Positions 206-60,085 of a DNA stretch of 64,000 nucleotides are shown here, piece after piece. The stretch covers positions 4,794-68,793 of the forward strand of contig JBEKAC010000005.1 of NCBI GenBank assembly GCA_050018395.1. Reading direction: 5' to 3'. The number at the start of each line of letters is the position of its first letter. Position 1 is the stretch's first letter. The notes beneath the pieces were generated by a model. It was not told the DNA's origin. It worked only from the letters and a program-made list of their open reading frames with translations, and ran no database searches. Source of the DNA: Dehalococcoidales bacterium (GTDB taxonomy: Bacteria; Chloroflexota; Dehalococcoidia; Dehalococcoidales; RBG-16-60-22). The position numbers and the translations under genes were made by a program.

Positions 206-207
206 TC

Positions 208-5276: not shown

Positions 5277-5321
5277 ATCAAACCCTCCTGTTTTATTTGG
5301 GAATCACGCTATTTTGATATT

Positions 5322-5657
5322 TCAAAGCGTTTTCTTTAAAGCTTCCAGCATTTCCCGCGTTCCGGGCCGAACAATTTTATCGCAGGGGCACTCGGGGCAA
5401 TGCACGCAGGTAAGATATCCCTTGTTTTGAGCGCAGGTGCGTATATTGCAGGTAGCGCAGTAGGTCACTATCCGGCCCCCCGCCCGGCAGCCATCGCATA
5501 ATATGTCTTCAACGGTATGTTTTGTCCCGGTAGCTTTATCCCATTTCTCCGCGACACGTTTTCTTTCCGCTTCGTCATTGCTTTGAGTGGCTTTGTAAGC
5601 CGGACAATTAGAGCAATCGAAGCCGCAAACGGCGATTAAATCACTTAACATAATCAT
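5322..5657 (-). CDS. Cys-rich DUF3795-like protein
   Basis: 111 aa; CGFDCSNCPAY start motif plus several further Cys pairs. Confidence 0.55.
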   Translation of the reverse strand: MIMLSDLIAVCGFDCSNCPAYKATQSNDEAERKRVAEKWDKATGTKHTVEDILCDGCRAGGRIVTYCATCNIRTCAQNKGYLTCVHCPECPCDKIVRPGTREMLEALKKTL

Positions 5658-5670
5658 GAACTATCTCCGT

Positions 5671-6030
5671 TTAATCTTTTACCGGCATGCCCGGCATTTT
5701 CCCCTCCACGAGCGGGACGACGCAAATGATGCGCAGCATTTCTTTACCGGCGTTGGCAAAGCTATGTTGTTCGTTGGGCAGTACCGTCACGGCATCGCCT
5801 GGCGCCAGCGGGGTCTCTTTGCCGCTACCCCTTAAGGCCCCCTTACCCTCCAGCACAAAAACCTCGTGCTCCCAGGGGTGGGTGTGTAAAGGGGTGGCGC
5901 TGCCCCTTTCTATTTCAAAGACGCGCATGACGAAGGTGGGCGCTTTTTCCGCCGGCCCCGCCACTACCCGCATGGTTACGCCGGGCGCCGCCGCTATGCC
6001 GTTGACTTGACGGTAGTTCTGTACTTTCAT
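5671..6030 (-). CDS. cupin domain protein
   Basis: 119 aa; HTHPWEHEVFVLEGKG ... GDAVTVLPNEQHSF two-motif cupin signature. Confidence 0.75.
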   Translation of the reverse strand: MKVQNYRQVNGIAAAPGVTMRVVAGPAEKAPTFVMRVFEIERGSATPLHTHPWEHEVFVLEGKGALRGSGKETPLAPGDAVTVLPNEQHSFANAGKEMLRIICVVPLVEGKMPGMPVKD

Positions 6031-6141
6031 CAGATCTCCTTAAAAAGGTAATTACAGCCAATTATCAGGCACAGTTTTCAGGTTGTCAAGAAATTGACCG
6101 CAAAATAGCCGTCTGTTATTCTATGATGGAAGGTAGAGCAT

Positions 6142-6642
6142 GTGGCAAACGACGAGCTGCAAATCAGGGAAATAACCGGTGAAAACCTGGATAAGAGTGT
6201 GAACATCATCCGTCGCGCCTTCGGTACGGTGGCGGAGGAAATGGGATATACGGAAGCCCTGGTGTCCGCCTTCCCGGCTTTCACCACCGTGGAAAAACTC
6301 AACGTGCTTAAGTCGCGCGGGGCGGTATTTTTCGGGGGGTTCATCGATGGGAAGCAGGCGGGCTTCGCTGCATTAGAGAAGGAACCGGACGGCAAGTATT
6401 ACATCAAAAGGATCTCGGTACTACCGGAATACCGGCATAGTGGCCTGGGCCGGGCGCTGGTGAATCACGTCATCGGATACGTTAGAAACAAAGGCGAAAC
6501 CAAACTTCACCTCACGATGGCCGATGAAAACCCGGTTTTAAGGAACTGGTACCTCGGGATGGGGTTCAAGGAAACATCGATAAAGAAATTCGAGCACCTG
6601 CCCTTTTATGTGAGTTTCATGGAGCGGGATATCAGGCAGTAG
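6142..6642 (+). CDS. GNAT family N-acetyltransferase
   Basis: 166 aa, GTG start; ISVLPEYRHSGLGRALVNHV acetyl-CoA binding motif. Confidence 0.75.
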   Translation: MANDELQIREITGENLDKSVNIIRRAFGTVAEEMGYTEALVSAFPAFTTVEKLNVLKSRGAVFFGGFIDGKQAGFAALEKEPDGKYYIKRISVLPEYRHSGLGRALVNHVIGYVRNKGETKLHLTMADENPVLRNWYLGMGFKETSIKKFEHLPFYVSFMERDIRQ

Positions 6643-6655
6643 CAAAGGGGATAAC

Positions 6656-7573
6656 ATGTTTGATTGGGATGCAATAATCATCGGCGGGGGGCCGGCCGGG
6701 CTTACGGCGGGGCTTTATTTGAGCCGGGCCAAGCGGCGGGTGTTGCTTTTGGATAAAGACGCCGCCGGAGGCTACCCGCGTAATATCGCGCTGATTGAGA
6801 ATTACCCAGGCTTTGCCGACGGCATCGCCGGGCCACAGCTGACTTCACAAATGGTGGCGCAGGCTGTGAAATACGGCCTCCAGACGGAAATTGCCGAGGT
6901 CACCAGCATCGAGCTGTTTTCCGGCACGCGTTATGTAGGGTGCGCCCGCGGCCAGGGCTACACCACCAACGTTGTCATCATCGCCGGAGGTTCGAAGAAC
7001 AAAAAACTGGGCGTCCCCGGTGAAGCCGAGTTGGCGGGTAAGGGCGTCTTCGAGTGCGCCTTCTGCGACGGCGGGCACTTCGCCGGCCGGGTGGTGGCGG
7101 TCTGCGGCGGGGGAGACGCTGGCGTGACCGAGGGGCTCTACATGTCTAAAATCGCCTCGAAGGTGATTCTCATCGAGGCGATGCTGGTAATGACCGCCGC
7201 GGCGGTATTACGGGAGAGAGTGGCGGCCAACCCCAAAATAGAGGTGCGCCTCGGCACCCGGGTGGAAGCAATCTTGGGTAAGGAAAAGGTGGAAGCGGTA
7301 GCGCTGGCGGCGGGGGATAGAAAAGAAACACTAAAGGTGGATGGCGTGCTGGTGCACATTGGCCTGGAGCCGAATACCGGCTATCTGGAAGGCATCGTAC
7401 CGCTGGACGCACAGGGGCAGATTATCGTTAACGGGAAAATGGAGAGCGAAGTGCCTTATATCTTCGCCGCGGGGGACATAAGGAGCGGCTCGCCCCGACA
7501 AGTTGTCGGGGCGGTGGGTGACGGCGCCATCGCGGCGATAACGGCGGAGAGATTGCTACAGCGAGAGGGATAA
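6656..7573 (+). CDS. thioredoxin-reductase-like FAD-dependent pyridine nucleotide-disulfide oxidoreductase
   Basis: 305 aa; IIIGGGPAGLTAGLY FAD motif, CAFC redox pair (canonical TrxB has CATC), second GGGDAG dinucleotide motif. Confidence 0.75.
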   Translation: MFDWDAIIIGGGPAGLTAGLYLSRAKRRVLLLDKDAAGGYPRNIALIENYPGFADGIAGPQLTSQMVAQAVKYGLQTEIAEVTSIELFSGTRYVGCARGQGYTTNVVIIAGGSKNKKLGVPGEAELAGKGVFECAFCDGGHFAGRVVAVCGGGDAGVTEGLYMSKIASKVILIEAMLVMTAAAVLRERVAANPKIEVRLGTRVEAILGKEKVEAVALAAGDRKETLKVDGVLVHIGLEPNTGYLEGIVPLDAQGQIIVNGKMESEVPYIFAAGDIRSGSPRQVVGAVGDGAIAAITAERLLQREG

Positions 7574-7578
7574 AGCTG

Positions 7579-9486
7579 CTAAAGCTCAGCAGCCGTGTCT
7601 GGTAATTTTGTTTCAGCCGCCTTCGTTTTGGCTTTCACCGGAATGGGCTTATCCGGCACATCCGGCTTCTCTCCGGAGACTTTCACGATGGCGCTGAATT
7701 TCTCCGGGCAAATCTCTAGGCAGTTGCCGCACTTGACGCATTTTTCCTGGTCGATAATATGGACCATCCGCTTGCCGCCCACGACGGCCCCGGCGGGGCA
7801 TTCGCGGGCGCAGATGCCGCAGCCCTCGCACTTGTCCGGCAGGATATAGTAGTGGATCAACTTGGGGCAGACGCCGGCGGGGCACCTTTTTTCCTCGATG
7901 TGCGCCTTGTATTCGTCCATGAAATAGCGGAGGGTGGTCAGGACGGGGTTAGGCGCCGTTTGCCCCAGGGCGCAGAGCGAACCGGCTTTGATCTCTTCCC
8001 CCAGCCTTTGCAAAAGGGCGATGTCTTCTTTAACGCCTTCGCCGCCGCAGATCCTTTCCAGGATGTCCAGCATCTGTTTGGTACCGATGCGGCAGGGAAC
8101 GCATTTGCCGCAGGACTCCGCCTGGGTGAAGGAGAGGAAATAGCGGGCGACGTCTACCATGCAGGTCTCTTCGTCCATGACGACCATTCCGCCCGAGCCC
8201 ATCATCGAGCCGGCGGCCGTGAGCGATTCGTAATCCACGGACTGGTCGAGGTAGGCTTCCGGCAAACAGCCGCCGGACGGCCCGCCGGTCTGGACGGCTT
8301 TGAATTTCTTGCCGCCGGGGATGCCCCCGCCGATTTCGTAGATAATCTCGCGTAGCTTTATGCCCATCGGCACTTCAATCAGGCCGCTGTTGGCGATTTT
8401 CCCCGTGAGCGCGAAGACGCAGGTGCCCTTGCTTTTATCGGTGCCGATACCGGCGTACCAGTCCGCCCCCCGGGCGATGATGACCGGCACGTAGGCCAGC
8501 GACTTTACATTGTTAATAGTTGTGGGCTTGCCCCACAGGCCGGAGACGGCGGGGTAGGGAGGGCGGGTGCGTGGCATGCCGCGTTTGCCCTCGATGGAGG
8601 CCATCAGCGCGGTCTCCTCACCGCAGACGAAAGCGCCGGCGCCTTCCTTGACGTGGATAGCGAAGCTGAAATTAGAGCCCAAAATATTCTGGCCGAGGTA
8701 CCCCTCTTTTTCCGCCTGCTGGATGGCCAGGCGGACGCGTTTAACCGCCAGCGGGTACTCGGCGCGGATGTAGACATAGCCTTCGGACGCGCCGATAGCG
8801 TAAGCCGCGATGGTCAGGCCCTCGATGACGGAATATGGGTCGCCCTCCATGATGCTGCGGTCCATAAAAGCGCCGGGATCGCCCTCGTCGGCATTGCAGA
8901 TCATGTATTTCTGGTCGCCCGGGACGTTGCGGCACAGCTCCCACTTGGTGCCGGTGGAAAACCCGGCCCCGCCCCGCCCGCGCAGCCCGGAACGCTTTAT
9001 TTCCGCGATGACCTGCTCCGGCGTCAGGCCTTGCAGGATTTTTTTCAGGGAGGCATAGCCGCCCGCGGCGGTGTAGTCCTCGAGTTTTTCCGGGTTAATG
9101 ACGCCGCAGTTGCGCAGGATGATGCGCTGCTGTTTGCTGTAAAACTTGATGTCCTTGTGGTTGGGGATAGCCTCGCCGGTAACCGGGTCTTTGTAAAAGA
9201 GGCGGGTGACGGGCTTACCGTCGCGGAGGTGGGAAGTAACGATTTCCGGCACATCCTCCACCGTGACGTGGGCATAGAAAATGCCTTCCGGCTCGACGAC
9301 GACCACCGGGCCCTGCTCGCAGAAACCGTGACAGCCGGTAAAATCAACCTTAACGCCGGCCAGGCCCTGCCTGGCGATGGCTTTAGATAGCGCCTCCGTA
9401 ATTTGCTGTGATTTGCCGGAGACGCAGCCAGTGCCCTGGCACACGTAGATGGTACGCCCGGCGCTAGCCGGTTTTTCCGCCGTCAC
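7579..9486 (-). CDS. NuoF-like NADH-binding FMN/Fe-S flavoprotein (HydB/HymB/FdhB-type), with N-terminal 2Fe-2S thioredoxin-like and C-terminal 2x[4Fe-4S] domains
   Basis: 635 aa; GRGGAGFSTGTKW, ESCGKCVPCRIG and C-terminal CEGCGICARECP / CVKCGNCLEICP ferredoxin motifs. Confidence 0.85.
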   Translation of the reverse strand: MTAEKPASAGRTIYVCQGTGCVSGKSQQITEALSKAIARQGLAGVKVDFTGCHGFCEQGPVVVVEPEGIFYAHVTVEDVPEIVTSHLRDGKPVTRLFYKDPVTGEAIPNHKDIKFYSKQQRIILRNCGVINPEKLEDYTAAGGYASLKKILQGLTPEQVIAEIKRSGLRGRGGAGFSTGTKWELCRNVPGDQKYMICNADEGDPGAFMDRSIMEGDPYSVIEGLTIAAYAIGASEGYVYIRAEYPLAVKRVRLAIQQAEKEGYLGQNILGSNFSFAIHVKEGAGAFVCGEETALMASIEGKRGMPRTRPPYPAVSGLWGKPTTINNVKSLAYVPVIIARGADWYAGIGTDKSKGTCVFALTGKIANSGLIEVPMGIKLREIIYEIGGGIPGGKKFKAVQTGGPSGGCLPEAYLDQSVDYESLTAAGSMMGSGGMVVMDEETCMVDVARYFLSFTQAESCGKCVPCRIGTKQMLDILERICGGEGVKEDIALLQRLGEEIKAGSLCALGQTAPNPVLTTLRYFMDEYKAHIEEKRCPAGVCPKLIHYYILPDKCEGCGICARECPAGAVVGGKRMVHIIDQEKCVKCGNCLEICPEKFSAIVKVSGEKPDVPDKPIPVKAKTKAAETKLPDTAAEL

Positions 9487-9961
9487 CCAGGACCTCCGTG
9501 ATTCTTTTAGGAGTCATTTTGCCGTAAGTCTCGCCGTCCACCGTCATGGTGGGCGCTAAAGCGCACGCGCCGATACAGGCCACCGTTTCCAGGGTATATT
9601 CCATATCGTCCGTGGTGCCCCCGGCCTTAACGCCGAGAGTCTTTTCTATTTCACCCAGGACTTTGCCCGCGCCGCGTACGTGACAGGCGGTGCCGCGGCA
9701 GACGCGTATGACCTTTTTACCTAGCGGCGTTAGTTTGAACTGGGCATAAAACGTGCTGACGCCGTAGACGGCGCTTTCCGTTAGATTTAAGAACCGGGCG
9801 ATTTCCCGGATGGCTGCGGCCGGCAGATAATGGAAGTGCTGCTGCGTTTCCTGCAGGATGGGGATGAGTTCATGCCGTTCCCCGGCGTGGTGGGAGAGGA
9901 TTCCCTTTAGTTTTTCGGCAACTTCGCTATCGGTCAAGTTATCCGTTACCAGTGGTGTCAC
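9464..9961 (-). CDS. NuoE-like [2Fe-2S] subunit (HydC/HymA-type)
   Basis: 165 aa; VCRGTACHVRGA ... VACIGACALAPTM motif; overlaps the nuoF-like start by 23 nt. Confidence 0.85.
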   Translation of the reverse strand: MTPLVTDNLTDSEVAEKLKGILSHHAGERHELIPILQETQQHFHYLPAAAIREIARFLNLTESAVYGVSTFYAQFKLTPLGKKVIRVCRGTACHVRGAGKVLGEIEKTLGVKAGGTTDDMEYTLETVACIGACALAPTMTVDGETYGKMTPKRITEVLGDGGKTG

Positions 9962-30092: not shown

Positions 30093-30170
30093 GATTCCGA
30101 TGCCGTTACCCCTAAAATATTTTCTTTTCCTGCCATGGCACTTTTCCCGATGTGGTAAAATCTAAATGGT

Positions 30171-30620
30171 ATGAATATTAAAACGGTAGCGAACAACCGC
30201 AAGGTTTTCCACAATTATTACGTGGGAGAGACGTTCGAGGCCGGCATCGCCCTGCTTGGTTCGGAAATAAAGTCTATCCGGGACGTGCGGGTGAGCCTTA
30301 GTGATGCTTACGTCAAACCGGAAAAGGGTGAGATGTGGCTGGTGAATGCGCATATCGCCCGGTACGCGGCGTCCAGCTATATGGGACATGATCCCACACG
30401 GCCGCGTAAGCTGCTGCTGCACCGGAAAGAAATTTTGAACCTCACCGGCAAGGTGGCGGAAAAGGGGTTGACGCTGGTAGCTACTAAAGTGTATCTCAAG
30501 GGAGGCCGGGCCAAAGTGGAAATAGCGCTGGCCAGGGGCAAAAAGCTCTATGATAAGCGTGAGGCCATCAGCCGCCGCGAGACGGACAGGGAGATGGAAC
30601 GGGCGATTAAAAGCCGCTAG
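30171..30620 (+). CDS. smpB: SsrA-binding protein
   Basis: 149 aa; NRKVFHNYYV...GSEIKSIR...LLLHRKEI...KLYDKRE pattern. Confidence 0.95.
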   Translation: MNIKTVANNRKVFHNYYVGETFEAGIALLGSEIKSIRDVRVSLSDAYVKPEKGEMWLVNAHIARYAASSYMGHDPTRPRKLLLHRKEILNLTGKVAEKGLTLVATKVYLKGGRAKVEIALARGKKLYDKREAISRRETDREMERAIKSR

Positions 30621-30639
30621 CACTTTATTAATCAAATAT

Positions 30640-30989
30640 GGGGACGCGTGGTTTCGACAGGGGAAGTGCGCTATAGGAACGCAAGCAGAGGTGCCGCTCC
30701 CTCTTTAAACCGGTGGCAAAAAACAACTGCCGAACCAGTAATGGTTGCAGCCTAATTAACTAGGTTGCCATCCAACCTGACCTCACCCCGACGGGTCAGG
30801 ATTGGGTGCCGCAAAGTGGGGGTGCCGCTGCCCTGATGCCGGTATGGGCAGTGAAAGATTATCGGCTGGCCCGGCCCAACTCGGTCGGTTGAGGTGGGCG
30901 GGGCGAGACAAAAAGAGCCGACTAAGCTTGTAGTAAGTCCTGGACAGCTTCTTCTGGACGGGGAGTTCGACTCTCCCCCGTCTCCACCA
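30640..30989 (+). ncRNA. ssrA: tmRNA (ssrA), one-piece
   Basis: 5' ggggacgcgtggtttcgacagggg and 3' ggacggggagttcgactctcccccgtctccacca tRNA-like ends; candidate tag frame at 30729-30755 (GCC GAA CCA GTA ATG GTT GCA GCC TAA = AEPVMVAA). Confidence 0.9.
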
Positions 30990-50051: not shown

Positions 50052-51287
50052 CTACTGGCTGGGTGAGAACTGCGCCGTCCAGAGCATCTGCCTCGCCGTG
50101 GGGTTGGCTGCCGAGGGGGTTGACATTATTGAGATATAGTCACCGGCGGTAAAGCTCACCGAGTGAGTGAGGTCGGAGCCCGTGGTATTTGTGCCCGAGA
50201 TAGTGCAGGTCACGGTTGTATCGGCGCCATTCTTGCGGACAACGAAAGTATACCAATGATTAGTACCGGGGCTTCCATTCAGAGTGACATAGAAGTTAGA
50301 CAAGGTGCCGGCTACTGGCATGAGCTGCTGATTCTCCCCCTCAACAGTGCTTCGATTGGACTCGAACATGGGCACGTAGTTGATCGAAGACCCTTGAAGG
50401 TTGACGCTGCCGGTGCCGCCGCCGATGATTAATACTGGCGCAGAAACGTACTCGGTACTTAACCGGATCATACCAGCATACAAAGCATCCGTGATTACTT
50501 CTCCCCCGGGAAAGTATATTTGCCTTGTTGCCGTGCTTGTTATTATAATCTTGCTTTGCGTCTGGTTAACCGATACCGATGTCGCCGCGGTGCCCGTCCC
50601 GGCCAGAAGCTTTGCCCAGACTGCCGGATAAAGCGTATCCATGGTAATTACAACTGATTTAACCCTGGAGGAGCCCGGAGATTGGGAGAGCGGTTTTAAC
50701 GCTATCGCCTCCGTTTCCATAGATGAAGATGCCGTCAAATAACCGGTCAAAACCGGTAAATAAATCTCATCGCCTACGATTAGCGATTGCTCGTCCGTGG
50801 TGGCACTAGCGTTCCCGTAATCCCTGATTATTATTCCGTGTTCATAGACCAGCCTGGGGCTGTCAATAGTGCCCTGCACCTCATAACTTATACGGTTGGA
50901 GGTATAATTCTGGGTAATCACCGGGTTCCCGGGGGCGTCGATAGTATATGCGATACTAACCGCCACATTATCCGAGGTCAGTGAGCCGGCCACCCCGGTG
51001 CCCGGATTCGCCAGGAACACCCGGTTGGGATATCGTACTCCCATATGGATATTGCTGGACTTTGGTTCTCCAGATAAAGCTACATCCTCCACGTCGGATT
51101 TGAAGGTCATCATGTCATCGTGGGCCGCGTTGAGATGCGCATATTCTACATCCTTATTCCAGTCAGGCACGAGGAAAACCTGCAAAGTGCCCCATATTGC
51201 CGCCGCAACCAGCAACAATATCATGGCGCCGATAACCTCAGAGACCCCTCTTTCCTCTCGGCACCGGCGGCTAATTCCAGTTCTCAT
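50052..51287 (-). CDS. large pilin-like protein with an archaeal class III signal peptide
   Basis: N-terminus ...RCREERGVSEVIGAMILLLVAAAIWG; ATGA overlap with the upstream gene favours ATG 51287 (ORF-track TTG at 51296). Confidence 0.6.
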   Translation of the reverse strand: MRTGISRRCREERGVSEVIGAMILLLVAAAIWGTLQVFLVPDWNKDVEYAHLNAAHDDMMTFKSDVEDVALSGEPKSSNIHMGVRYPNRVFLANPGTGVAGSLTSDNVAVSIAYTIDAPGNPVITQNYTSNRISYEVQGTIDSPRLVYEHGIIIRDYGNASATTDEQSLIVGDEIYLPVLTGYLTASSSMETEAIALKPLSQSPGSSRVKSVVITMDTLYPAVWAKLLAGTGTAATSVSVNQTQSKIIITSTATRQIYFPGGEVITDALYAGMIRLSTEYVSAPVLIIGGGTGSVNLQGSSINYVPMFESNRSTVEGENQQLMPVAGTLSNFYVTLNGSPGTNHWYTFVVRKNGADTTVTCTISGTNTTGSDLTHSVSFTAGDYISIMSTPSAANPTARQMLWTAQFSPSQ

Positions 51288-52063
51288 CCTGGCCAAGCCT
51301 CCCGGAGCACTCTAACCAATCTGCCAAGCATATTCTCTTCCCGGCTGCGGAATATGAAATCAGCAAAAAGAGCCACCACTCCCGCCAGGAAGACGGCATC
51401 CAGGACACTACCGCCGCCTACTGACACCATGGTAGGCTTCCCCCAATCATGGTTGGCCAGCTTGTGCAGGTTAAGGAGGTCGGCTCCAATCAGCACCCCG
51501 ATTGTGGCTCCGGCGTAGGCCAGAAGAGCCGTATTTAGATTGCCCAGCCCTTTCATTCTCCGGAACATGAAGGCAATCCCCGACGCCAGAATCGGCGGGA
51601 TGGTAAAAAGGAAGACTACCACGCCCAGCCCGGGCTGAATAAAGGTATAGAGATAGGTTACCGCCGCAATAATGACCGCAAGGAGGCAAAACTGCTTCCA
51701 CGGGATACGCTTATATACCAGCATATTCAGCGTAATCATGGCGGGGATGAAAAAGCCCACCGCGTTGACCCCGATGACGATGTGACCGAGTTGAAAGATT
51801 GGCACATCGAACACCTTTGCCGTGTTGAACACAGCGCCGAATATGCCACCCGTAACCCCGTTGATAGCGCTGCCCACCACGGGCAGGGCGGCGAAATATG
51901 TAAATAGCGGAAAGACCACCAGCAATATCACCTCTACCAGTGTGAATCCGGCCACATGAAGGTAGAATCCCAGTAGTGCAGCCAGGATAAAAATAAAAAA
52001 TATCAGGACGAAGATAAGAACGCCGATACCGAATAGCCCCACCATCTCCTCCGGTGTGAACAA
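51284..52063 (-). CDS. polytopic membrane protein (DUF1614-like?) in the pilus locus
   Basis: 259 aa with about 7 TM segments; start is ambiguous (TTG 52063 or ATG 52045). Confidence 0.5.
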   Translation of the reverse strand: MFTPEEMVGLFGIGVLIFVLIFFIFILAALLGFYLHVAGFTLVEVILLVVFPLFTYFAALPVVGSAINGVTGGIFGAVFNTAKVFDVPIFQLGHIVIGVNAVGFFIPAMITLNMLVYKRIPWKQFCLLAVIIAAVTYLYTFIQPGLGVVVFLFTIPPILASGIAFMFRRMKGLGNLNTALLAYAGATIGVLIGADLLNLHKLANHDWGKPTMVSVGGGSVLDAVFLAGVVALFADFIFRSREENMLGRLVRVLREAWPG

Positions 52064-52064
52064 C

Positions 52065-52985
52065 TTACATCAACAAGGTATAGGCAATGACTGCCACAAT
52101 GATAAACAAAACCGAGTGCTTGAGGCCGGCCACAACTTTTCCTTCAGCCATCTTTCCGGTAACAATACCGGCAAAAAAGCCCTGTATCACCAGCGCATGG
52201 AAGAATAGCATATTATATCGGGATAAATCTGCATCGGAAACGGCAAACTTATTCATCCCACTCGGCAGGGCTGTGCCGGAAGTGACTATAGACGCCTGCT
52301 TCATCATGGGCAGAAAGACGTAGCTCATAATCATTATCACCGCCAGGAAAACGAAGTAGCTGACATAACAGACCATAAGGTACGGCTTGGTTTCCGAGTT
52401 TCTTCTCTTTTCCAGGGCTTTTGTCTCCTCCACGTCGGTGGCAACACCCTCCAGTATCTGACTTAACTGGCCACCCATCCTGGATGCCTCGATGAGGGTA
52501 AACACTGTTCTGCGGATAAGCACCGTGGGGTATTTCTTGGCGAATTGAATCAAAGCATCATCAAAAGAAATACCCCATGAAATAGAATTATCCATCTGCT
52601 TGATAGCCCTGGTAAGCGCGCCATACTGCCCTCCCGCAGCCATGCTCATCGCCCCCTTTAGAGTCATCCCGGATTTTACGGATAGGCTGATATCGCGTAT
52701 CATGGCCGGAAACTCTGCCTCCAGCTTGCTTATTTTTCTCGTATCATAGAAGCTGAAAAAACCGGGAGGAATGATAATCAGGAGAAAGGCCAGAATCACG
52801 ATGTTCATCGGGTTCATGCCCATGTAGAAGGCAATAACGGCACAAACCATAGCAATCACGCCCGAGATAACATACAGCAAATACCGTCTTTCTCTTATTG
52901 TAGGCAGTGGAGATTCAAGGAACTGCTGCCAGGTGGACTTACTTCGGCGGCGTTCCAGTATATCAAGAACCATATCCCTGTTCAT
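52065..52985 (-). CDS. type II secretion system F-domain membrane protein (FlaJ/TadC-like half)
   Basis: 306 aa; T2SSF-like cytoplasmic domain flanked by TM segments. Confidence 0.75.
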   Translation of the reverse strand: MNRDMVLDILERRRSKSTWQQFLESPLPTIRERRYLLYVISGVIAMVCAVIAFYMGMNPMNIVILAFLLIIIPPGFFSFYDTRKISKLEAEFPAMIRDISLSVKSGMTLKGAMSMAAGGQYGALTRAIKQMDNSISWGISFDDALIQFAKKYPTVLIRRTVFTLIEASRMGGQLSQILEGVATDVEETKALEKRRNSETKPYLMVCYVSYFVFLAVIMIMSYVFLPMMKQASIVTSGTALPSGMNKFAVSDADLSRYNMLFFHALVIQGFFAGIVTGKMAEGKVVAGLKHSVLFIIVAVIAYTLLM

Positions 52986-52986
52986 A

Positions 52987-53907
52987 CTATTTTATCCCCT
53001 GCGGCGTCATCATATCGGTAACCAGCACAAACGCTATCGAGCCCAGTGGGATATACCCGTAAATAATCACCATCAAAATCATCGGGCTTGCGCCTCCCAT
53101 CATCATCATGGCAGCGAACATGACGATAACCAGGAGCGGCGCTGCCACCAGCCCGATGATATAGACCTCGGAAATCAGGCCCAGAGTCGTAATGAATTCA
53201 GTAAACTTCTTCCGGTTTTCTTCCATGGTTTCCCGGGATTTGCTGACAAAGTAGGTCCCCATTTCGCCTCCGGAGAGGGCATTTGTAATCGCCCCCTGGA
53301 TGAATGTCCTCAGGTGTGTGGAAGGAGTAGCGGAGGCCAGGTTACGCAAAGCGCTGACAAAATCAAAGCCGAGCAGTTCAACGTCCTTGGCCACCAGCTT
53401 CGCTTCCTGGCTTATCTCGCCGAAGAATTCCTCTGTCTCGGCAAGCTTCCTGAAAATCAGGTAGGGAATGACACCCGTGGTAGCCATGAACGACATCCAG
53501 CAGATGGCATAGGGCAGATGGCCGTCAATCTTCCCTTTCCTCTCCCAGCTCTTAACCCGGGGATAGAGGATAAAGAGGAGGAACAGGGCCAGGCAGCAAG
53601 CCAGTGTTACGAAGACAATCAGGCTGAAGTCAGCGACAAGCCCCGGCATGTCGGTTATGGCTATGTCTCTTGCGAAGATGAATCGCCAGATCGGCACATA
53701 GTTAAAGAGGAGAGCTGATACCGCCAGCCCCATGGTGACGCAGACGGATGACAGTACAAGCGAATACAGGGTAGCCAGGGATAGCAATTTTTCTACGGTG
53801 ATATACATCCGCGCCTTTACCAGGTCGTTGGTCAGGAAGGAGAAACGAGTTCGCCTTTCCCGGTAGTAACTACCAAAGAGAGACAGGGCTATAGTACCAG
53901 TGTTCAC
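52987..53907 (-). CDS. type II secretion system F-domain membrane protein (FlaJ/TadB-like half)
   Basis: 306 aa; same architecture as 52065-52985; GTG start overlaps the ATPase stop. Confidence 0.75.
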   Translation of the reverse strand: MNTGTIALSLFGSYYRERRTRFSFLTNDLVKARMYITVEKLLSLATLYSLVLSSVCVTMGLAVSALLFNYVPIWRFIFARDIAITDMPGLVADFSLIVFVTLACCLALFLLFILYPRVKSWERKGKIDGHLPYAICWMSFMATTGVIPYLIFRKLAETEEFFGEISQEAKLVAKDVELLGFDFVSALRNLASATPSTHLRTFIQGAITNALSGGEMGTYFVSKSRETMEENRKKFTEFITTLGLISEVYIIGLVAAPLLVIVMFAAMMMMGGASPMILMVIIYGYIPLGSIAFVLVTDMMTPQGIK

Positions 53908-55664
53908 CGTACTTCTCCCTGCACTAAACTCTTTTCGACCTCATCCGGGCGGACACTGTAGTCAAACAAAAGTCGGCTCAGTCTATAAAAGTCATTGACC
54001 TTATTTTTACATAGCAAATTCATAATTCTCAGCCGCCGGGCATACTCTGCGGCCAATTGTTCCTCGGTTATGTTTAGTTTTTCCATAGTCTCCAGAAATA
54101 CCTTGGACTCTCCGCTGAATTGAAAGTTTCCGGTAGCAAGTCGGAAGACCACATTCGTCTTGAGTGTTCCGGTCTCAAAATCGACACCGGTCACCTCGGT
54201 CACGTTAGTACATCTCCTGGTCCTGACATCGCCTTCCTTTATCATACTGACCTGGGCGATGATGTCGATGCTGTCAAGCAGCATTAGCGGCACATCTATG
54301 GGTGGTTTCGTCAACCTTTTTACCAACGAATCTACGGAGTCCGCGTGAACTGTGGAGAAGGTGATATGGCCGGTGGCCATCGCCTGGAAAAGGGTTGAGG
54401 CTTCCCGTCCCCGCACTTCTCCAACCAGCAGATATTCGGGCCGCTGCCTGAGCGCTGTCCGGAGCAAGTCAAACATCTCAATTGAGCCGCGCTCTTCGGT
54501 TTCCATGGTGACGGAGGGTATCCAGTTCTGGTGAGTAAGGTTTATTTCCCGGGTATCTTCAATGCTTACTACCTTGCAACTTGGCGGTATGAACATGGAG
54601 ATGGTATTGAGGAAAGTAGTCTTCCCTGATGCCGTGCCGCCGATAATAAGGATGTTAAACCCGTTTTCTACCGCCATCCATAAATAGACAGCCATCTCTA
54701 CTGATATAGTTCCGAGGTTTATCAGGTCTATCGGGGTAAAGGGGGTCTCCCGGAATTTCCGAATTGTAAAAGTAGAGCCTCTAGTGGTAACCTGACTACC
54801 TATGCTCAGTTGTAGCCGGTCATGGTTAGGCAATGAGGCATCGAGCAGCGGTTTGGCCATCGAGATGTGCCTGCCTGATCTCTGCGCCAGCTTGTAGATG
54901 GTGGAGTCCAGCTCTTCCTGGGTAAAGGTAACGTTGGTTTCCAACGACCCATACTTCTGGTGGTAGACAAACGCCGGAATCCCGGGGCCGTTAGATGAAA
55001 TATCTTCCGCTCTTTTATCTCTCAGTATCGGGTCAAGCTTGCCGTAACCTATCAGGTCTCTCACCACGTAGTACATTATCTTTTCCATGCTCAAAGGACT
55101 CAGGCGGATGCCGAATTCCCTGGTTATTTCCTGAATCTTCTGCCTCAGGAAGTCCTCAGGTTTATCCAGCGAGGCAAAATCCAGGTTGATTACCTCGTAG
55201 AGCCACAACCTTATCTCCTTTAGCAGCTCTTCCTCACCTCTGGTCAGTCTGACCTCGCATACCTGATAAGTGTGAGGATGGCTGGCGGCAATGCCAATGC
55301 AGGCGTAGGGTTCGTTCACCGGATACACCTCCAGGAATTTATCCTTATCTATCTCCAGTGCTAGCCTTGGCTCAGAGGCAGCCTCTATCTCTAAAGACTT
55401 GCTCTCTTTGGTTTTTTTTATTTTCTTTTGTTTACGCGGTCTCTGTTCAGCAAGTACTGCCTTTAAGGTTTCCTGAGCCTTTATTTTTCCCTCTTCTTTG
55501 GCCGACAACTGCGCCGCATTTGAGCCTACCTCCCCGCTGCGCTTGAGCAGCGCAGAGCCGCACCATTCACAGTGGTTAACACCACCGGATATCCGGCCGC
55601 AGTGGGGACAGACTATCCCTTTGCCTGAAAGTCGGTCTTGTTGCTCCGTGGTCAAAGCCTTCAT
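53904..55664 (-). CDS. archaeal FlaI/PilB-type type IV filament assembly ATPase with an N-terminal zinc ribbon
   Basis: 586 aa; CPHCG...CEWCG; YPVNEPYACIGI...YQVCEVRL (FlaI-type N-domain); GGTASGKTTFLN Walker A; LLVGEVRGREA. Confidence 0.9.
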   Translation of the reverse strand: MKALTTEQQDRLSGKGIVCPHCGRISGGVNHCEWCGSALLKRSGEVGSNAAQLSAKEEGKIKAQETLKAVLAEQRPRKQKKIKKTKESKSLEIEAASEPRLALEIDKDKFLEVYPVNEPYACIGIAASHPHTYQVCEVRLTRGEEELLKEIRLWLYEVINLDFASLDKPEDFLRQKIQEITREFGIRLSPLSMEKIMYYVVRDLIGYGKLDPILRDKRAEDISSNGPGIPAFVYHQKYGSLETNVTFTQEELDSTIYKLAQRSGRHISMAKPLLDASLPNHDRLQLSIGSQVTTRGSTFTIRKFRETPFTPIDLINLGTISVEMAVYLWMAVENGFNILIIGGTASGKTTFLNTISMFIPPSCKVVSIEDTREINLTHQNWIPSVTMETEERGSIEMFDLLRTALRQRPEYLLVGEVRGREASTLFQAMATGHITFSTVHADSVDSLVKRLTKPPIDVPLMLLDSIDIIAQVSMIKEGDVRTRRCTNVTEVTGVDFETGTLKTNVVFRLATGNFQFSGESKVFLETMEKLNITEEQLAAEYARRLRIMNLLCKNKVNDFYRLSRLLFDYSVRPDEVEKSLVQGEVR

Positions 55665-55835
55665 TCATCCTTCCAAAGCGAATGCCGGTGGCTACAGGTA
55701 AGTAATTCTCTGCAGCCGGTCGCAAACACATGGGGCTCCCCCGTCTGGTCACAGACCGGCCGGCCGAGGTGCCTTCCTGCGCCCAGGCCGATTCAGTATT
55801 CGGGGGCAAATTCGCCGCGTGTTTGGCAATTACCC

Positions 55836-56282
55836 CTAGCGTACCAGCACATTGGTATCTAATAAAATAGCATTACTGCCAGTATCGATGGCGACGAAGT
55901 GATACCATCCCGTGGTTATGGCAACATTGTTCGTGTCCGTTGTCACCCGTAGAGTTGTGCCGGTCGATAGAGCATTTACGCCTAGCTGGGTCTGGATTGT
56001 GAAGTTGGCGCTACTCTCCTGTCCCCCTGTTAACGAGCCCTTCCACGCATTAGCCAATATACTGTCCCCACCATCGTCCTTCACCAGCAACGAGGTATTG
56101 TCGGTCGGGGTATCAATCACCGATAGCGAGACATTGGGCGCCTTTGAAGTGTGCCCGAGGAATCCATAGACGTAACCGGCTACCACCGCCCCCATGACTA
56201 CGGTTATAGCAACCATCAATATCACGCCGATTACCGGGGATACTCCCCTCTGATCTCTCTGAAAAATATTTAAGTGTTTCAT
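55836..56282 (-). CDS. archaeal-type type IV pilin (class III signal peptide)
   Basis: 148 aa; QRDQRGVSPVIGVILMVAITVVMGAVVAGYVYG is the archaeal pilin/flagellin N-terminal domain. Confidence 0.8.
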   Translation of the reverse strand: MKHLNIFQRDQRGVSPVIGVILMVAITVVMGAVVAGYVYGFLGHTSKAPNVSLSVIDTPTDNTSLLVKDDGGDSILANAWKGSLTGGQESSANFTIQTQLGVNALSTGTTLRVTTDTNNVAITTGWYHFVAIDTGSNAILLDTNVLVR

Positions 56283-56405
56283 CTCCTTTACCTCCCGTTT
56301 TTACTCAAACCCTTAGAGTTATTCCATCATTACTCCCCTTTGGTTACATAGGCTGCCCCCTCATTCTTGACCCGAGCATCTGTCGGGCATCACCCTGGCA
56401 CCATC

Positions 56406-56843
56406 TCATACGCCTGCCATAGCCATTACCGTATCCAGAATCACCGTCGGATCTGACCCTTTGTTGAGAAAAAGAACCGACTTGGTAAAGTAACCATCGG
56501 CCCCGTGCTGATAGGTACTGATAATATCGCTTTTATTATCTGAGGCGGTAAGTATCACTACCGGGATTTCTTTCAGTTTTTCATCGCTTTTTACATGTTC
56601 CAGTACCTCCAGCCCGCTAACCTTAGGGAGCTTGAGGTCAAGGAGGATTAAATCCGGCCGGGGATTAGCTTCTCTTTCGGCATAAACGCCGCGGTTATGC
56701 AGGAAATCGAGCGCCGCTTGACCATCTTTAATCCAGGACAATCGTGATTTCAGGGTTGCTTTCTCCAGAGCCCGTTTCATGAGAACGCCGTGCTCCTGGG
56801 TATCCTCCACCATTAAAACATTAATCTCTCTTGGCATAGTCAC
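56406..56843 (-). CDS. single-domain response regulator (CheY-like)
   Basis: 145 aa; NVLMVEDT, DLILLDLKLPKVSG, VVILTAS, ADGYFTKS. Confidence 0.85.
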   Translation of the reverse strand: MTMPREINVLMVEDTQEHGVLMKRALEKATLKSRLSWIKDGQAALDFLHNRGVYAEREANPRPDLILLDLKLPKVSGLEVLEHVKSDEKLKEIPVVILTASDNKSDIISTYQHGADGYFTKSVLFLNKGSDPTVILDTVMAMAGV

Positions 56844-57136
56844 TATTCCGCCCTCCTTCCTGCAAATTTGTTTAATCGTCTTTGAAATAAGCTACTTGAT
56901 GTGGGTTTTTTTATATAAGCTTTGGCTCCCGCTTTGACGGCTGCAACAATTACATTAGGGTCGGTCATATACGCCGGTATGAGCAAGGCAATAATTGCTG
57001 AAGGGTCATTTTCTCTTAATTCGTGTAATGCGGCTATCACGTTGCTTTCTTCAACTGCCAGATTCAGCAACGTAATATTCACGATGCTTTCACCCGTTTC
57101 TTGTATAATCATCACGTGAGTTTCTTCTGATGTCAT
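56843..57136 (-). CDS. truncated pseudo-receiver, tandem paralog of 57136-57519
   Basis: 97 aa; the C-terminal 60 aa are near-identical in pattern to the neighbour; the phospho-Asp position reads LLNLAV and the acidic pocket is lost. Confidence 0.6.
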   Translation of the reverse strand: MTSEETHVMIIQETGESIVNITLLNLAVEESNVIAALHELRENDPSAIIALLIPAYMTDPNVIVAAVKAGAKAYIKKPTSSSLFQRRLNKFAGRRAE

Positions 57137-57519
57137 TACTCTGCCCTCTTTCCCGCTAGCTTGTTCAATCGTCCTTTTAAATCTTCACCTGATGTCGGCT
57201 TCTTCATATAGGCTTTAGCCCCCGCTCTCACGGCTTCAATTATTATATCCGGGTCATCTATGTTCTCCGGCATCAGCAGGGCAACCGCCGCGGAAGGATT
57301 ATCCTGGGTTAAGGCGCGTACCACATCGATACCACCGGCTCCGTCGAGTTTCAAGTCGATCAAGGTGATATCAGGGAGGTACTTAGCAAACATTTCCAGG
57401 GCCTCGACGCCGTTTTTAGCGACGGCAACGACATTAAATCCAAGCGATTCCAGCGCATTGGAAAGGAGGATGCGCGTAAAGGTGGAGCTATCGGCCAGGA
57501 GTACCTTAATCTTTGCCAT
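57136..57519 (-). CDS. single-domain response regulator (CheY-like)
   Basis: 127 aa from ATG 57519 (aagggga RBS); KVLLADSS, ITLIDLKLDGAGG, AKAYMKKP. Confidence 0.8.
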   Translation of the reverse strand: MAKIKVLLADSSTFTRILLSNALESLGFNVVAVAKNGVEALEMFAKYLPDITLIDLKLDGAGGIDVVRALTQDNPSAAVALLMPENIDDPDIIIEAVRAGAKAYMKKPTSGEDLKGRLNKLAGKRAE

Positions 57520-59296
57520 GGTTATCCCCTTGGTTTGTATCGTCCGACCCAGGCAATGTAAAGCACATAGTGGTTCCCTTCCCCGATTGACCGTCTTCCA
57601 CCCATATCCTGCCCCCGTGGGCTTCAATAATTTTTTTCACAATCGCCAGGCCGATGCCGCTCCCTTCACCTTCCGCTGTCCCCCGATAGAAGAGAGTGAA
57701 GAGTTTTCCTTTCGAATTGGGATCAATCCCGGTACCGTTGTCGCGCACAAAGAAGACGGTTTCGTTCCCTGAAACATAGTGACCTATCTCAATTTTTAGA
57801 GGGACGGTTTTATCCCGGTATTTAATGCTGTTCTGGACAAGGTTGTCCATCATCTGCTTTATCCTGGACCTGTCCACACAAATTATTGGGAATATCTTCG
57901 CGAGGGAAACGGTAGCCCCGATCGCGTTAATCTGTTCGTTAAACTCTGTAATCACTTCCTTGACTATTTCGTCAAAATGAACATCCTGGGTCCGCTTTAT
58001 CATGTGTCCGGAACGGGAATATGCCAGGGTGCTGGTCAAGAAAACCTGCATCTTCCTGACCCCGGACTCAAGCAGGCGGATATCCTCGGCGACGCTTTCC
58101 ATTTTCTGGCTTTTTAAGTCCTCCCGGAGCAGACGGCTGAAGCCTTCAATGCTTACCATCGGGCTTCTTAAATCGTGAGCGATACCATAGCTAAACGTCT
58201 CCAGCTCGCTGACCTGTGCCTGAAGCTGCCGGGTAAGTTTTTCCCGTAACTGCTGGCCCTTTTTACGCTCCGTAATATCCCGAATGTTGCACTGGATTAC
58301 TTTTCTGTGGTCAACGTCGTAGACATTGCTGACAAATTCCACATCAGCCAGCCTGCCATTCTTCGTCTGGAGCGGCAGGTCTTCGTAACGGATGTAATTC
58401 TCGCTTTGCAGTGTTTTTAAAGCTGTCTTAGCCAGTTCAATGTCTTTGAATGCTCCCATTTCCCATAGTTTCTTACCTAAAAGCTCCTCGTTAGAATACC
58501 CCAGCATATCCGTGAGAAACGGATTAACATCAGTGATTTGCCCTGTGGCTGCATCGAGAATCAATATCCCGTCCTGGGCCGCTTCGAAAAGTCGTCTGTA
58601 TTTAACCTCGGAATATTCCAGCGCATGCTCTGCCTGTTGTCGCTCGGTGATTTCCAGTTTTAGCTCTTCATTGGTTTTGACCAGTTGTGCGGTACGCGCT
58701 TTAACGTGCTGCTCCAGCTGTTCATTCAGCCTTTTCAACTCGCCTTGCGCCTGTACAAGCTCCGTGTTCTTACTAACCGCAGCTTCATAGGTGGAGAGCA
58801 GGAGGTTGAGAATCTGCAGGCGGTCCGAAGTAATGAGATATTTCTGCCCGCTGAACGTTATCTCTACGCCTATCTGCACTTGTTTGATTTCTGGTAACCT
58901 ACAGTTCAGCCGGAGGTCTTCAATTCGGGAGAAAAGAACTCGTTCATCATAGGGCTTGGTTAAAAAGTTATCGGCGCCACACTCCAGGCCTTTAATGACA
59001 TCGGCTGGATCAGCAAGGGCGGTCAAAAGTAAAACCGGAATATCTTTGAGTTTCACATCCGTTTTGATTTGCTTGCACAGCTCGTAGCCATCCATTTCCG
59101 GCATCACGATGTCGCTGATGACAACATTTGGCTTGTCCGATCTGAGAAGCCCGAGCGCTTCTTTGCCATTACTGGCGGCTATCACCTGGTAGCCGTGTGT
59201 CTCAAGAATGTCTTTGAGTTGTTCCCTTTGCGTGGGGCTGTCTTCGACAATAATAATTTTCCACTCATCGTTATCGCTCTTTTTTTTCGAGCTCAT
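57506..59296 (-). CDS. hybrid sensor kinase (N-terminal receiver, coiled coil, PAS, HisKA, HATPase)
   Basis: KIIIVEDS...VVISDIVMPEMDG receiver; FSYGIAHDLRSP H-box; VRDNGTGI...GSGIGLAIVKKI. Confidence 0.85.
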   Translation of the reverse strand: MSSKKKSDNDEWKIIIVEDSPTQREQLKDILETHGYQVIAASNGKEALGLLRSDKPNVVISDIVMPEMDGYELCKQIKTDVKLKDIPVLLLTALADPADVIKGLECGADNFLTKPYDERVLFSRIEDLRLNCRLPEIKQVQIGVEITFSGQKYLITSDRLQILNLLLSTYEAAVSKNTELVQAQGELKRLNEQLEQHVKARTAQLVKTNEELKLEITERQQAEHALEYSEVKYRRLFEAAQDGILILDAATGQITDVNPFLTDMLGYSNEELLGKKLWEMGAFKDIELAKTALKTLQSENYIRYEDLPLQTKNGRLADVEFVSNVYDVDHRKVIQCNIRDITERKKGQQLREKLTRQLQAQVSELETFSYGIAHDLRSPMVSIEGFSRLLREDLKSQKMESVAEDIRLLESGVRKMQVFLTSTLAYSRSGHMIKRTQDVHFDEIVKEVITEFNEQINAIGATVSLAKIFPIICVDRSRIKQMMDNLVQNSIKYRDKTVPLKIEIGHYVSGNETVFFVRDNGTGIDPNSKGKLFTLFYRGTAEGEGSGIGLAIVKKIIEAHGGRIWVEDGQSGKGTTMCFTLPGSDDTNQGDNHGKD

Positions 59297-59414
59297 TTTA
59301 ATTCGCCACCTCATTTTCCTTTCCCCCGACTAGCTAACAATGCGTCGATTCTCTCCGGGGGCAGCGCTGAAAACACTACAGCCATTTTTCTACCTTGTTT
59401 AGCATATTATTGTC

Positions 59415-59645
59415 TTATTCTTCTTTAACCGGAGATGGTATTTCTTCAACATTTATCCTTTCGGTTTCTGCTTTAAGCGCACTCAGGTCTTCCTCGGTAA
59501 ACAGCCTGAATCCTCTTCTGTCTCTCCGTATTTTGTGCAGCACACCCTTTTTTATCCACCGCTGGAGAGTAGCTCTACTGATACCGGTTCTTACACAAGT
59601 CTCGGTCGCACTGTAGAAAAGATGATGGTCTATATTTTGGGGCAT
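59415..59645 (-). CDS. excisionase/MerR-type HTH DNA-binding protein
   Basis: TETCVRTGISRATLQRWIKKGVLHKIR; ATG 59645 with a gaggtga RBS. Confidence 0.6.
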   Translation of the reverse strand: MPQNIDHHLFYSATETCVRTGISRATLQRWIKKGVLHKIRRDRRGFRLFTEEDLSALKAETERINVEEIPSPVKEE

Positions 59646-60085
59646 GATACGAGTCACCTCGATATAAGCCGATTCGATGCAAATTGTAGATTCAATTTAG
59701 CAGTTTGGAGTCACCGCGGTGTCACAAAAATCGGCAGTAATCTCTCAGACTTATCACAATTGTTTGTATTTTCATGAGTGACTTGCTTATGCCGCCAAAC
59801 GGTTAAGTTATTTAAATATGGCTCGGAGGCTGAGTGTGGTGAAGTAACAAAATACTGATGATAAAAGAAGATTTAAAGTCACAGGGGTGAAGAAAGGTAT
59901 TGAGGAACTAATATTTTATGCGCAACAAATAACCAGAAGAAAAAAGGACCTTTTGATGTTTTGAATATTAGTCTGACGAACGGCTGAAGCTCCCCACATA
60001 AACGGCATCCAGCATAGTGAGAAGCAATGATCTTCCTTACCCAGCCTATCGGCTTTGGCCGGTGCGAACTATCCTGGCCTTAACT

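Follow-up and report, generated by a model that had tools for sequence, protein, structure and literature searches.

Genes of the pilus locus

We analyzed a 64,000-nucleotide stretch (the window) of contig JBEKAC010000005.1, positions 4,794 to 68,793, from the Dehalococcoidales bacterium genome GCA_050018395.1. This is a metagenome-assembled genome (MAG) of 85 contigs with an estimated contamination of 3.3%, and the contig (69 kb) carries a locus resembling archaeal type IV pilus loci. Six pilus open reading frames (ORFs) occupy positions 50052-56282 of the window, all on the minus strand, closely packed and some overlapping, with the core genes intact and translationally coupled. A first-pass annotation, made from the sequence letters, had listed here a pilin with an archaeal class III signal and hydrophobic domain, a FlaI-type ATPase with an extra N-terminal Zn ribbon, a platform split into two proteins of exactly 306 amino acids (aa) each, a polytopic membrane protein, and a second pilin-like protein of 411 aa. 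When ORFs, coordinates, and strand were rechecked, every particular of this inventory was found to be accurate.

The small pilin gene (55836-56282, minus strand; 148 aa) is preceded by a strong ribosome-binding site. Its product starts with the class III signal MKHLNIFQRDQRG/VSPVIGV..., the signal region reading QRDQRG/VSPVIGVILMV, and continues with an N-terminal helix and a beta-sandwich. Thus, the class III signal, the N-terminal hydrophobic helix, and the beta-sandwich head of a PilA-family major pilin are all present, and archaeal pilin models match as well (Pfam Pilin_N, 1.5e-16; TIGR02537, 2e-10). In an AlphaFold2 (AF2) model (pLDDT 82), the helix spans residues 16-41 and is accompanied by beta strands; the top Foldseek matches of this model were the Haloferax volcanii type IV pilus 8FJ5 (E 9e-6) and Natrinema PilA2 8GI2 (E 1.4e-4). 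Metagenomes are rich in this family (>120 clusters at ≥67% identity). Automated annotation labels such pilins "archaeal type IV pilus assembly protein PilA," "flagellin-like protein," or "type IV pilin N-terminal domain-containing protein."

The large pilin-like protein (50052-51296, minus strand) is 414 aa long if counted from a TTG codon and 411 aa from the first ATG. It combines a class III signal (...REERG/VSEVIGAM...) with a DUF7289 domain (2.9e-6) and a variable C-terminal module. Its orthologues span 414 to 833 aa and share a conserved 280-aa N-terminal module; beyond this module, they differ in their inserts and in the C-terminal domain. The family and its N-terminal motif PDW[NT]K... 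recur in pilins of 449-742 aa beside archaeal loci. The protein probably serves as an adhesin, in the position of a minor or tip pilin.

The pilus assembly ATPase of the archaeal GspE/FlaI family (53904-55664, minus strand; 586 aa) contains a T2SSE domain (3.2e-35). Among NCBIfam models FlaI scored highest, at 358 bits and thus under its cut-off of 550, and TadA (TIGR03819) reached 153 bits (cut-off 373). Among PDB entries, the archaeal GspE 2OAP of Archaeoglobus fulgidus (394 bits) came before FlaI (277) and CpaF (162). The N terminus of the protein consists of the Zn ribbon CPHCG-x9-CEWCG (CxxC-x9-CxxC) and a Lys/Glu-rich linker. This ribbon is kept in the Dehalococcoidia copies L023 and L024 and not in others: the ATPases of loci L095 and L148 comprise 507 aa and lack it, and in genome G019 (L003; contig C57, 4535-6121) the match to query residues 54-585 has one TAG stop, the intact ORF being 507-517 aa. 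Given these shorter ribbon-less ATPases, the extension appears to be dispensable and to be undergoing loss in some lineages.

The platform is encoded by two genes, each for a 306-aa protein with one T2SSF domain. The N-half of the FlaJ/TadC-type platform (52987-53907, minus strand; T2SSF 5.8e-9) starts in a GTGA overlap with the ATPase stop codon and matches positions 40-249 of 555 of the ArlJ profile and positions 55-244 of UpsF. The C-half (52065-52985, minus strand; T2SSF 1.7e-19) matches positions 189-449 of 465 of an ArlJ profile. Hence, the two proteins correspond to the N- and C-halves of ArlJ/UpsF. Their archaeal counterparts are 42-46% (N-half) and 36-38% (C-half) identical. Nearly all of the relatives' loci with a detected platform gene have the split form, and only two are fused; many euryarchaeal "clade 2" loci were reported to carry two tadC-like genes (Makarova, Koonin & Albers 2016; PMC4858521). 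In this archaeal pilus class, a split platform is the rule and nothing exceptional.

Between the platform gene and the large pilin gene lies a translationally coupled gene (51284-52063, minus strand) for a polytopic membrane protein of 259 aa with a DUF1614 domain (Pfam, 7e-23). Across all locus genes, the ratio of nonsynonymous to synonymous substitution rates (dN/dS), determined against two relatives, was 0.09-0.30: 0.09-0.12 for the ATPase, 0.16-0.19 for the platform, 0.21-0.26 for DUF1614, 0.24 for the small pilin, and 0.28 for the large pilin. These values indicate purifying selection, and the ORFs are intact. Promoter and terminator scans of the locus gave counts near the shuffled expectation.

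Phylogeny and distribution

In a search of one genome per prokaryotic species, the ATPase was 63-88% identical to proteins of a few Dehalococcoidia MAGs and 62-65% identical to those of Methanosarcinales, Methanophagales, and related MAGs. Farther relatives were found in Methanocellales (about 50%) and in Thermoplasmatota and Bathyarchaeia (41-45%). In a maximum-likelihood tree of 46 ATPase sequences with PilB as the outgroup, the window sequence grouped with L023, L095, and L148 with 100/100 support, and the divergent L149 joined them at 85/68 to form a Chloroflexota group. Sister to this group were nine sequences of the Methanosarcinales/Methanophagales type. The joint clade of 14 sequences (99/100) was nested among Methanocellales, Archaeoglobi, Thermoplasmatota, and Bathyarchaeia. 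The clade of true archaellum ArlI proteins, which includes the ArlI of the host genome encoded on contig C20, was separate (100/100), as was Chloroflexota CpaF on a branch of ~3 substitutions per site. A tree of the concatenated platform halves agreed with the ATPase tree (supports 100, 99, and 100). Thus, in the phylogeny that the first-pass annotation had proposed as a check, ATPase and platform alike branch inside archaeal pilus clades and not with CpaF/Tad, PilB, or ArlI. In line with this, synteny with the archaeal loci extends over the order REC-REC-ATPase-N half-C half plus a DUF7289 pilin.

The locus is rare. In an even sampling of 401 genomes of the class, orthologues turned up in only 2, and within the host family, searches with the ATPase and DUF1614 point to four locus-bearing genomes out of 37 (G000, G019, G021, and G034). 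Furthermore, the island is located in differing neighborhoods in different genomes. The first-pass annotation had left the choice between inter-domain transfer and deep shared ancestry. Since the locus is rare, has variable flanks, and is nested in archaeal diversity, horizontal transfer from archaea is favored and the shared-ancestry part of that proposal is not; since all successive outgroups are archaeal, the ultimate origin would be archaeal as well. Judged by its sequence, the system is maintained, presumably functional, and moving among Dehalococcoidia.

Archaeal-type pilus ATPases with split platforms were also observed in L031 (a 105-kb contig of a MAG labeled Proteobacteria), L046 (labeled Cloacimonadota), and L081 (labeled "bacterium"), all clustering with Thermoplasmatota. 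Possible explanations are mis-binning of archaeal contigs and additional transfers between the domains.

Bacterial host and soundness of the contig

The window contains a transfer-messenger RNA (tmRNA) gene at 30640-30989 (Rfam, 169 bits), ~20 kb from the locus, and smpB at 30171-30620 on the plus strand (201 bits versus a cut-off of 130). A minus-strand ORF antisense to smpB (30162-30635; 157 aa) was dismissed as a spurious frame, having no Pfam match and matches full of stops. A block at 45.2-49.6 kb adjoining the locus encodes a LiaF-like protein, a kinase, a NarL-type regulator, an ABC ATPase, and a permease. It is native, being 58-85% identical and syntenic in genome G012 of the same genus, where no pilus genes were found beyond the block at the syntenic site. 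Because tmRNA and SmpB are encoded on the same contig and the adjoining block is native to the genus, we conclude that the host is bacterial (Dehalococcoidia), as the first reading of smpB and tmRNA had implied.

The tetranucleotide signature of the locus lies at the 89.5th percentile of host windows, and archaeal loci (GC content 0.43-0.47) are far outside the host range. Moreover, the same gene set was found on a 227-kb Joint Genome Institute (JGI) metagenome contig, on a 30-kb contig, and on several other Dehalococcoidia MAG contigs; the relatives' locus-bearing contigs are labeled Dehalococcoidia or Dehalococcoidales. The contig does not look chimeric; a chimeric bin is what the first-pass annotation had named as refuting its reading. 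Bacterial markers, native flank, host-range composition, and copies on independent contigs make a chimeric join or a mis-binned archaeal contig very unlikely.

The host genome encodes two further filament systems. Contig C20 (~9.4-20.1 kb; L184) carries a complete archaellum operon with three archaellin genes, a 365-aa gene, ArlJ (523 aa), an acidic 351-aa gene, ArlH (248 bits, cut-off 194), and ArlI (654 bits, cut-off 550), followed by kinases and response regulators. This operon is of the published Chloroflexota archaellum type, and ArlI-like paralogues occur in about 20 of the 37 family genomes. Contig C12 (~12-27 kb; L185) carries a bacterial type IVa pilus cluster with PilB, PilC, PilT, GFTLIE-type pilins, and PilD. 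Thus, one 2.5-Mb genome contains three type IV filament systems (type IVa pilus, archaellum, and archaeal pilus) and a single prepilin peptidase.

Prepilin peptidase and the DUF1614 protein

No peptidase of family A24 is encoded in the 64-kb window, in agreement with the first-pass annotation, which had seen no prepilin peptidase there. The genome search that it had proposed for a PibD/FlaK/EppA/TadV-type enzyme yielded one A24 peptidase, which is of the bacterial PilD type (A24_N_bact+Peptidase_A24) and is encoded on contig C12. An archaeal PibD/FlaK/EppA-type peptidase is lacking in the host genome and present in the sister loci L149, L186/L187, and G493. In 8 of the 10 locus-bearing genomes, an A24 peptidase is encoded outside the locus. 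For the Chloroflexota archaellum, it was described that the peptidase gene is outside the locus and that most lineages, including the functionally archaellated Litorilinea aerophila, have only bacterial-type PilD (PMC12488501). By analogy, the C12 PilD probably serves the bacterial pilin (KG/FT), the archaellins (KG/IT), and the two pilins of this locus (RG/VS).

Three variants of the locus were distinguished. In the window and in L023, L095/G019, L148, L094, L096, L097, and G034 (variant A), the platform C-half, DUF1614, and the large pilin are encoded in this order, and there is no A24 gene in the locus. In G493 and L186/L187 (variant B), whose ATPases are 79-85% identical to that of the window, the genes for the C-half and then the large pilin are followed by that for an archaeal-type A24 peptidase (Peptidase_A24+Arc_PepC_II), and DUF1614 is missing. 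The divergent L149 (variant C) has both, with DUF1614 after the C-half and the archaeal-type A24 peptidase after DUF1614.

The locus-type DUF1614 subfamily comprises about 100 clusters with 47-100% identity. Its alignment revealed the invariant residues N100, G103, and P107 (motif N-x2-G-x3-P), G189-x-L-x-GAD195-xx-N198 (G-x-L-x-GAD-x2-N), and G216, G217, and D222 (GG-x4-D), and thus two invariant Asp residues in Gly-rich motifs. The AF2 model (pLDDT 85) had no significant PDB match, and none of the 50 matches listed was a prepilin peptidase or presenilin-type entry. Homology to A24 peptidases or presenilins was rejected, as 34 members gave no such Pfam match even at E 10 and there was no fold match; a catalytic role without homology is still conceivable. 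A general link of the family to type IV pili was also rejected, since generic members in archaea, Proteobacteria, and other Dehalococcoidia have unrelated neighborhoods. Trees lacking most archaeal members suggest that the locus-type subfamily is nearer to a Methanocellales member than to native Dehalococcoidia DUF1614 proteins. We conclude that DUF1614 is a recruited, conserved accessory membrane component, to which we assign no role. A bolder proposal is that it is a new essential pilus biogenesis factor, either a non-homologous class III signal peptidase or a membrane adaptor for an archaeal pilus in a bacterial cell. In its favor, closely related Dehalococcoidia loci carry either DUF1614 or the archaeal-type A24 peptidase; the translational coupling, the purifying selection, the two invariant Asp residues in Gly-rich membrane motifs, and a predicted fold with no PDB counterpart point in the same direction. 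Nevertheless, we regard this proposal as rather unlikely.

Relation to known filament systems

The locus is most similar to euryarchaeal clade 2 pili such as Haloferax volcanii PilA1-6/PilB3/PilC3, which were derived from a four-part ancestor consisting of ATPase, TadC, PilA major pilin, and a signature large pilin (PMC4858521). Common to both are a VirB11/GspE-family ATPase that branches with archaeal pilus ATPases and not with ArlI, a FlaJ/TadC-type platform that is often encoded by two tadC-like genes in clade 2 and is so encoded here, a small PilA-family major pilin together with a large pilin, the pilin fold of the solved filaments 8FJ5 (Haloferax) and 8GI2 (Natrinema), and, in some loci, KaiC-like or other regulators nearby. 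The clade 2 signature large minor pilin is arCOG02911 (Makarova 2016); the locus has the large class III-signal DUF7289 protein, whose family is also found beside the archaeal loci and which we leave unassigned with respect to arCOG02911. In contrast to clade 2 pili, the locus resides in a bacterial host, has no dedicated PibD/FlaK-type peptidase (bacterial PilD being the only A24 peptidase), contains DUF1614 built into the operon, and encodes an ATPase with the extra N-terminal Zn ribbon.

The nearest relatives are Methanosarcinales/Methanophagales loci, which are of the anaerobic methanotroph (ANME) type, e.g., WJOV01000099, JAFNKG010000018, and JAGXOS010000040. They share the order REC-REC-(...)-ATPase-N half-C half, adjacent DUF7289 pilins, and, in L018, the hybrid PAS kinase. 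However, in these archaea the small pilin gene is at a different genomic site, DUF1614 is found on other contigs in housekeeping neighborhoods, the large pilins are longer (449-742 aa) and encoded on the opposite strand, and the ATPase lacks the Zn ribbon.

Archaellum loci were recently described in 243 of 3,780 Chloroflexota genomes and traced to Methanotecta-type archaea (Sivabalasarma et al., Nat Microbiol 2025; PMC12488501). Like them, the locus represents an archaeal type IV filament machine acquired from euryarchaea, with the peptidase outside the locus and usually of the bacterial PilD type. Unlike them, it has a split platform and an ATPase that stays under the FlaI cut-off (358 versus 550 bits) and belongs to another clade. 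Furthermore, no ArlH, ArlF/G, ArlC/D/E/X, or archaellin genes are present within 49-60 kb, so that the set defining an archaellum (an ArlI equivalog with ArlH, ArlJ, ArlF/G, ArlCDE/ArlX, and archaellins in one locus) is not found here. The first-pass annotation was thus right that archaellum-specific genes are absent from the locus and that it is not an archaellum; the separate archaellum is that on C20.

With Tad/Flp pili, which are thought to have derived from an archaeal pilus (Denise et al. 2019, as cited in PMC12488501), the locus shares two single-T2SSF platform proteins (TadB and TadC) and an ATPase of the same broad VirB11/CpaF superfamily. However, this ATPase is distant from Chloroflexota CpaF, the pilin is of the archaeal Pilin_N/PilA type and not Flp, and no TadV, TadZ, RcpA, or TadE/F genes were found at the locus. 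Accordingly, none of the hallmarks of Tad/Flp systems (CpaF/TadA-clade ATPase, Flp pilin, TadV, and TadZ) is seen.

Proposed function and alternative explanations

Taken together, these data make it quite likely that the locus is a functional type IV pilus operon of the archaeal type ("euryarchaeal clade 2," Haloferax PilA/PilB/PilC-like), which was acquired by horizontal transfer from an archaeon related to Methanosarcinales/Methanophagales and has a patchy distribution in Dehalococcoidia. Homology and predicted structure cover the filament subunit, the ATPase, and the two-protein platform, and the pilus function is deduced from them. According to the proposed mechanism, the 148-aa PilA-type pilin and the large DUF7289 pilin would be inserted into the membrane, and their class III signals would be cut after Arg-Gly, probably by the bacterial-type PilD of C12. 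A hexameric GspE/FlaI-family ATPase would drive a TadB/TadC-like heterodimeric platform of the two 306-aa T2SSF proteins; together, they would extract pilins from the membrane and polymerize PilA into a thin filament. The large pilin with its variable modules would probably sit at the tip as an adhesin, DUF1614 would be a conserved accessory membrane component, and a hybrid PAS kinase and CheY-like receivers, which apparently travel together with the ATPase genes, may control expression or activity.

Cultured Dehalococcoides has a single-membrane envelope with an S-layer and without peptidoglycan. We infer that the host Dehalococcoidia also have an envelope of the single-membrane, S-layer type; in such an envelope, an archaeal machine could work without a secretin.

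Several points speak against this interpretation or limit it. The GC content of the locus (0.512 versus 0.533 for the genome) is slightly atypical. The Chloroflexota and archaeal subclades are reciprocally monophyletic, and therefore the direction of transfer rests on the archaeal outgroups; in addition, the position of L149 in the ATPase tree has only 85/68 support. That a bacterial PilD cuts RG/VS archaeal pilins is something we infer, and the adhesive role is proposed by likeness to Haloferax and other clade 2 pili only.

Other scenarios were weighed as well. If the locus were an archaeal fragment wrongly assembled into, or wrongly binned with, a bacterial contig, one would expect archaeal nearest relatives outside Chloroflexota and a GC content slightly under the genome mean, both of which were observed, and the MAG, with its 85 contigs and 3.3% estimated contamination, gives some room for such an artefact. 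However, the contig around the locus measures 69 kb, tmRNA and SmpB are encoded on it at a distance of 20 kb, and the native syntenic LiaFSR-ABC block directly adjoins the locus. The composition of the locus is within the host range, that of archaeal loci being far outside. Moreover, at least 10 independent Dehalococcoidia/Chloroflexota assemblies, including the 227-kb and 30-kb contigs with their bacterial neighbors, represent a distinct bacterial lineage with 77-90% mutual identity and at most 65% identity to archaea. We consider an artefact very improbable. Even less credible is vertical inheritance predating the domain split, or a bacterial origin followed by transfer to ANME-type archaea. 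The reciprocal monophyly of the Chloroflexota and Methanosarcinales/Methanophagales subclades would fit this, but the successive outgroups are all archaeal and bacterial CpaF and PilB are distant, of 401 sampled Dehalococcoidia genomes 2 have the locus, the same-genus genome lacks it at the syntenic site, and a cross-domain ATPase identity of 65% is far above that expected for vertical descent.

A transferred system could also be a decaying or inactive relic, as suggested for two pilin-less loci of Anaerolineales. The missing dedicated archaeal peptidase in variant A, the curtailed REC gene at 56843-57136 as a sign of local decay, and the TAG stop within the G019 ATPase match (query residues 54-585) would be in line with this. 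Yet the core genes are all intact and translationally coupled, both pilins are present, every gene including those for both pilins and DUF1614 has a dN/dS of 0.09-0.30, the pilin family forms >120 metagenome clusters at ≥67% identity, and a PilD-type peptidase is available; thus, a relic is unlikely. About as unlikely, or marginally less so, is a short pseudopilus in place of an adhesive pilus, i.e., an export or display device similar to a bindosome or a type II secretion system, or a DNA uptake device. The ATPase does match the bindosome protein BasE (200 bits), the N-half weakly matches BasF, and the function of archaeal clade 2 pili was tested in few species only. However, the BasE and BasF scores are far under their cut-offs and below those of FlaI, ArlJ, and UpsF, no substrate-binding proteins with class III signals are encoded nearby, the pilin has the fold of a PilA-type filament subunit, and a large modular pilin suits an adhesin.

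To our knowledge, whole surface machines have been transferred from Archaea to Bacteria in few cases, the known ones being the ancient origin of Tad and the Chloroflexota archaellum. The locus would add to them an independent, complete adhesion pilus with its own regulators, kept under selection in Dehalococcoidia, and thereby a second archaeal surface machine in the phylum beside the published archaellum. The archaellum study mentioned only two archaeal pilus loci other than archaella, both in Anaerolineales, lacking pilins, and judged probably non-functional (PMC12488501), and a full-text literature search returned no description of a complete archaeal pilus in Dehalococcoidia. Thus, archaeal machines in Chloroflexota were already known (2025), and the new element is a bacterial case of an archaeal pilus module that is separate from these, complete, and under selection, and that has an unusual DUF1614 gene built into it. 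With three filament systems and apparently one bacterial PilD, the host provides a natural test of how interchangeable prepilin peptidases and envelopes are between the domains. The Methanosarcinales/Methanophagales-type nearest relatives indicate gene exchange between Dehalococcoidia and ANME-type archaea, and the DUF1614/A24 alternation offers a concrete handle on an uncharacterized, widespread membrane protein family.

Upstream regulatory genes and island edge

Upstream of the small pilin gene lie further minus-strand genes. The first encodes RR1, a single-domain CheY-like response regulator (56406-56843; 145 aa; Response_reg 4.5e-18). Its gene is upstream of the pilin in all bacterial loci and adjoins the ATPase gene in archaeal loci, and the protein is 44-46% identical to the products of the same-position REC genes of L014, L017, and L018. 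A second single-domain response regulator, RRb (57136-57627; Response_reg 3.4e-17), is 40-49% identical to those encoded just upstream of the RR1 homologue in the same three archaeal loci; its REC domain spans residues 42-154, which makes the internal MAKIKV the probable true start. Between the two lies the curtailed REC remnant of 97 aa (56843-57136; Response_reg 6e-4, profile positions 35-106 only). It is specific to the host genome, and because it is absent from the orthologous loci L023, L095, and L148, it looks like a recent tandem-duplication leftover.

The next gene (57506-59314) encodes a 602-aa hybrid sensor kinase with the Pfam domain order REC-PAS-HisKA-HATPase. The kinase is 52-77% identical in Dehalococcoidia loci, and the archaeal L018 encodes a kinase of the same architecture (623 aa, 31% identical over the entire length) immediately ahead of its REC and ATPase genes. 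Based on this arrangement, the kinase is likely the input of a phosphorelay controlling the pilus genes, and the upstream response regulators appear to belong to the transferred module. A small HTH_17/MerR-type DNA-binding protein (59415-59657; HTH_17 2.5e-9), which is excisionase-like, marks the island edge. It recurs there on either side in other loci (L095, 9838-10071; L186, 17973-18197) and could be a regulator or a mobility remnant; its membership in the system is uncertain. With it, the transferred module comprises ~9.6 kb, about 50052-59657. A scan for flanking direct repeats and att-like sites around the island gave short chance-level matches only.

Further genes were observed near related loci. 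In the variant B loci L186/L187 (a contig of JGI 3300038673 and a contig of SRR24332389), positions 1-9900 encode a full chemotaxis set (CheW, CheY, CheB, CheA, CheC, and CheD) and KaiB-KaiC directly upstream of the kinase, receiver, and pilin genes. This may indicate that the pilus or a nearby archaellum is under chemosensory or clock-like control. Beside the divergent pilus locus L149 (Chloroflexi MAG JACPQH010000100), a KaiC/GvpD-type P-loop ATPase is encoded at 6908-8212, echoing the KaiC association of archaeal clade 2 pili. On the window's own contig, a gas-vesicle cluster is located 10 kb from the locus.

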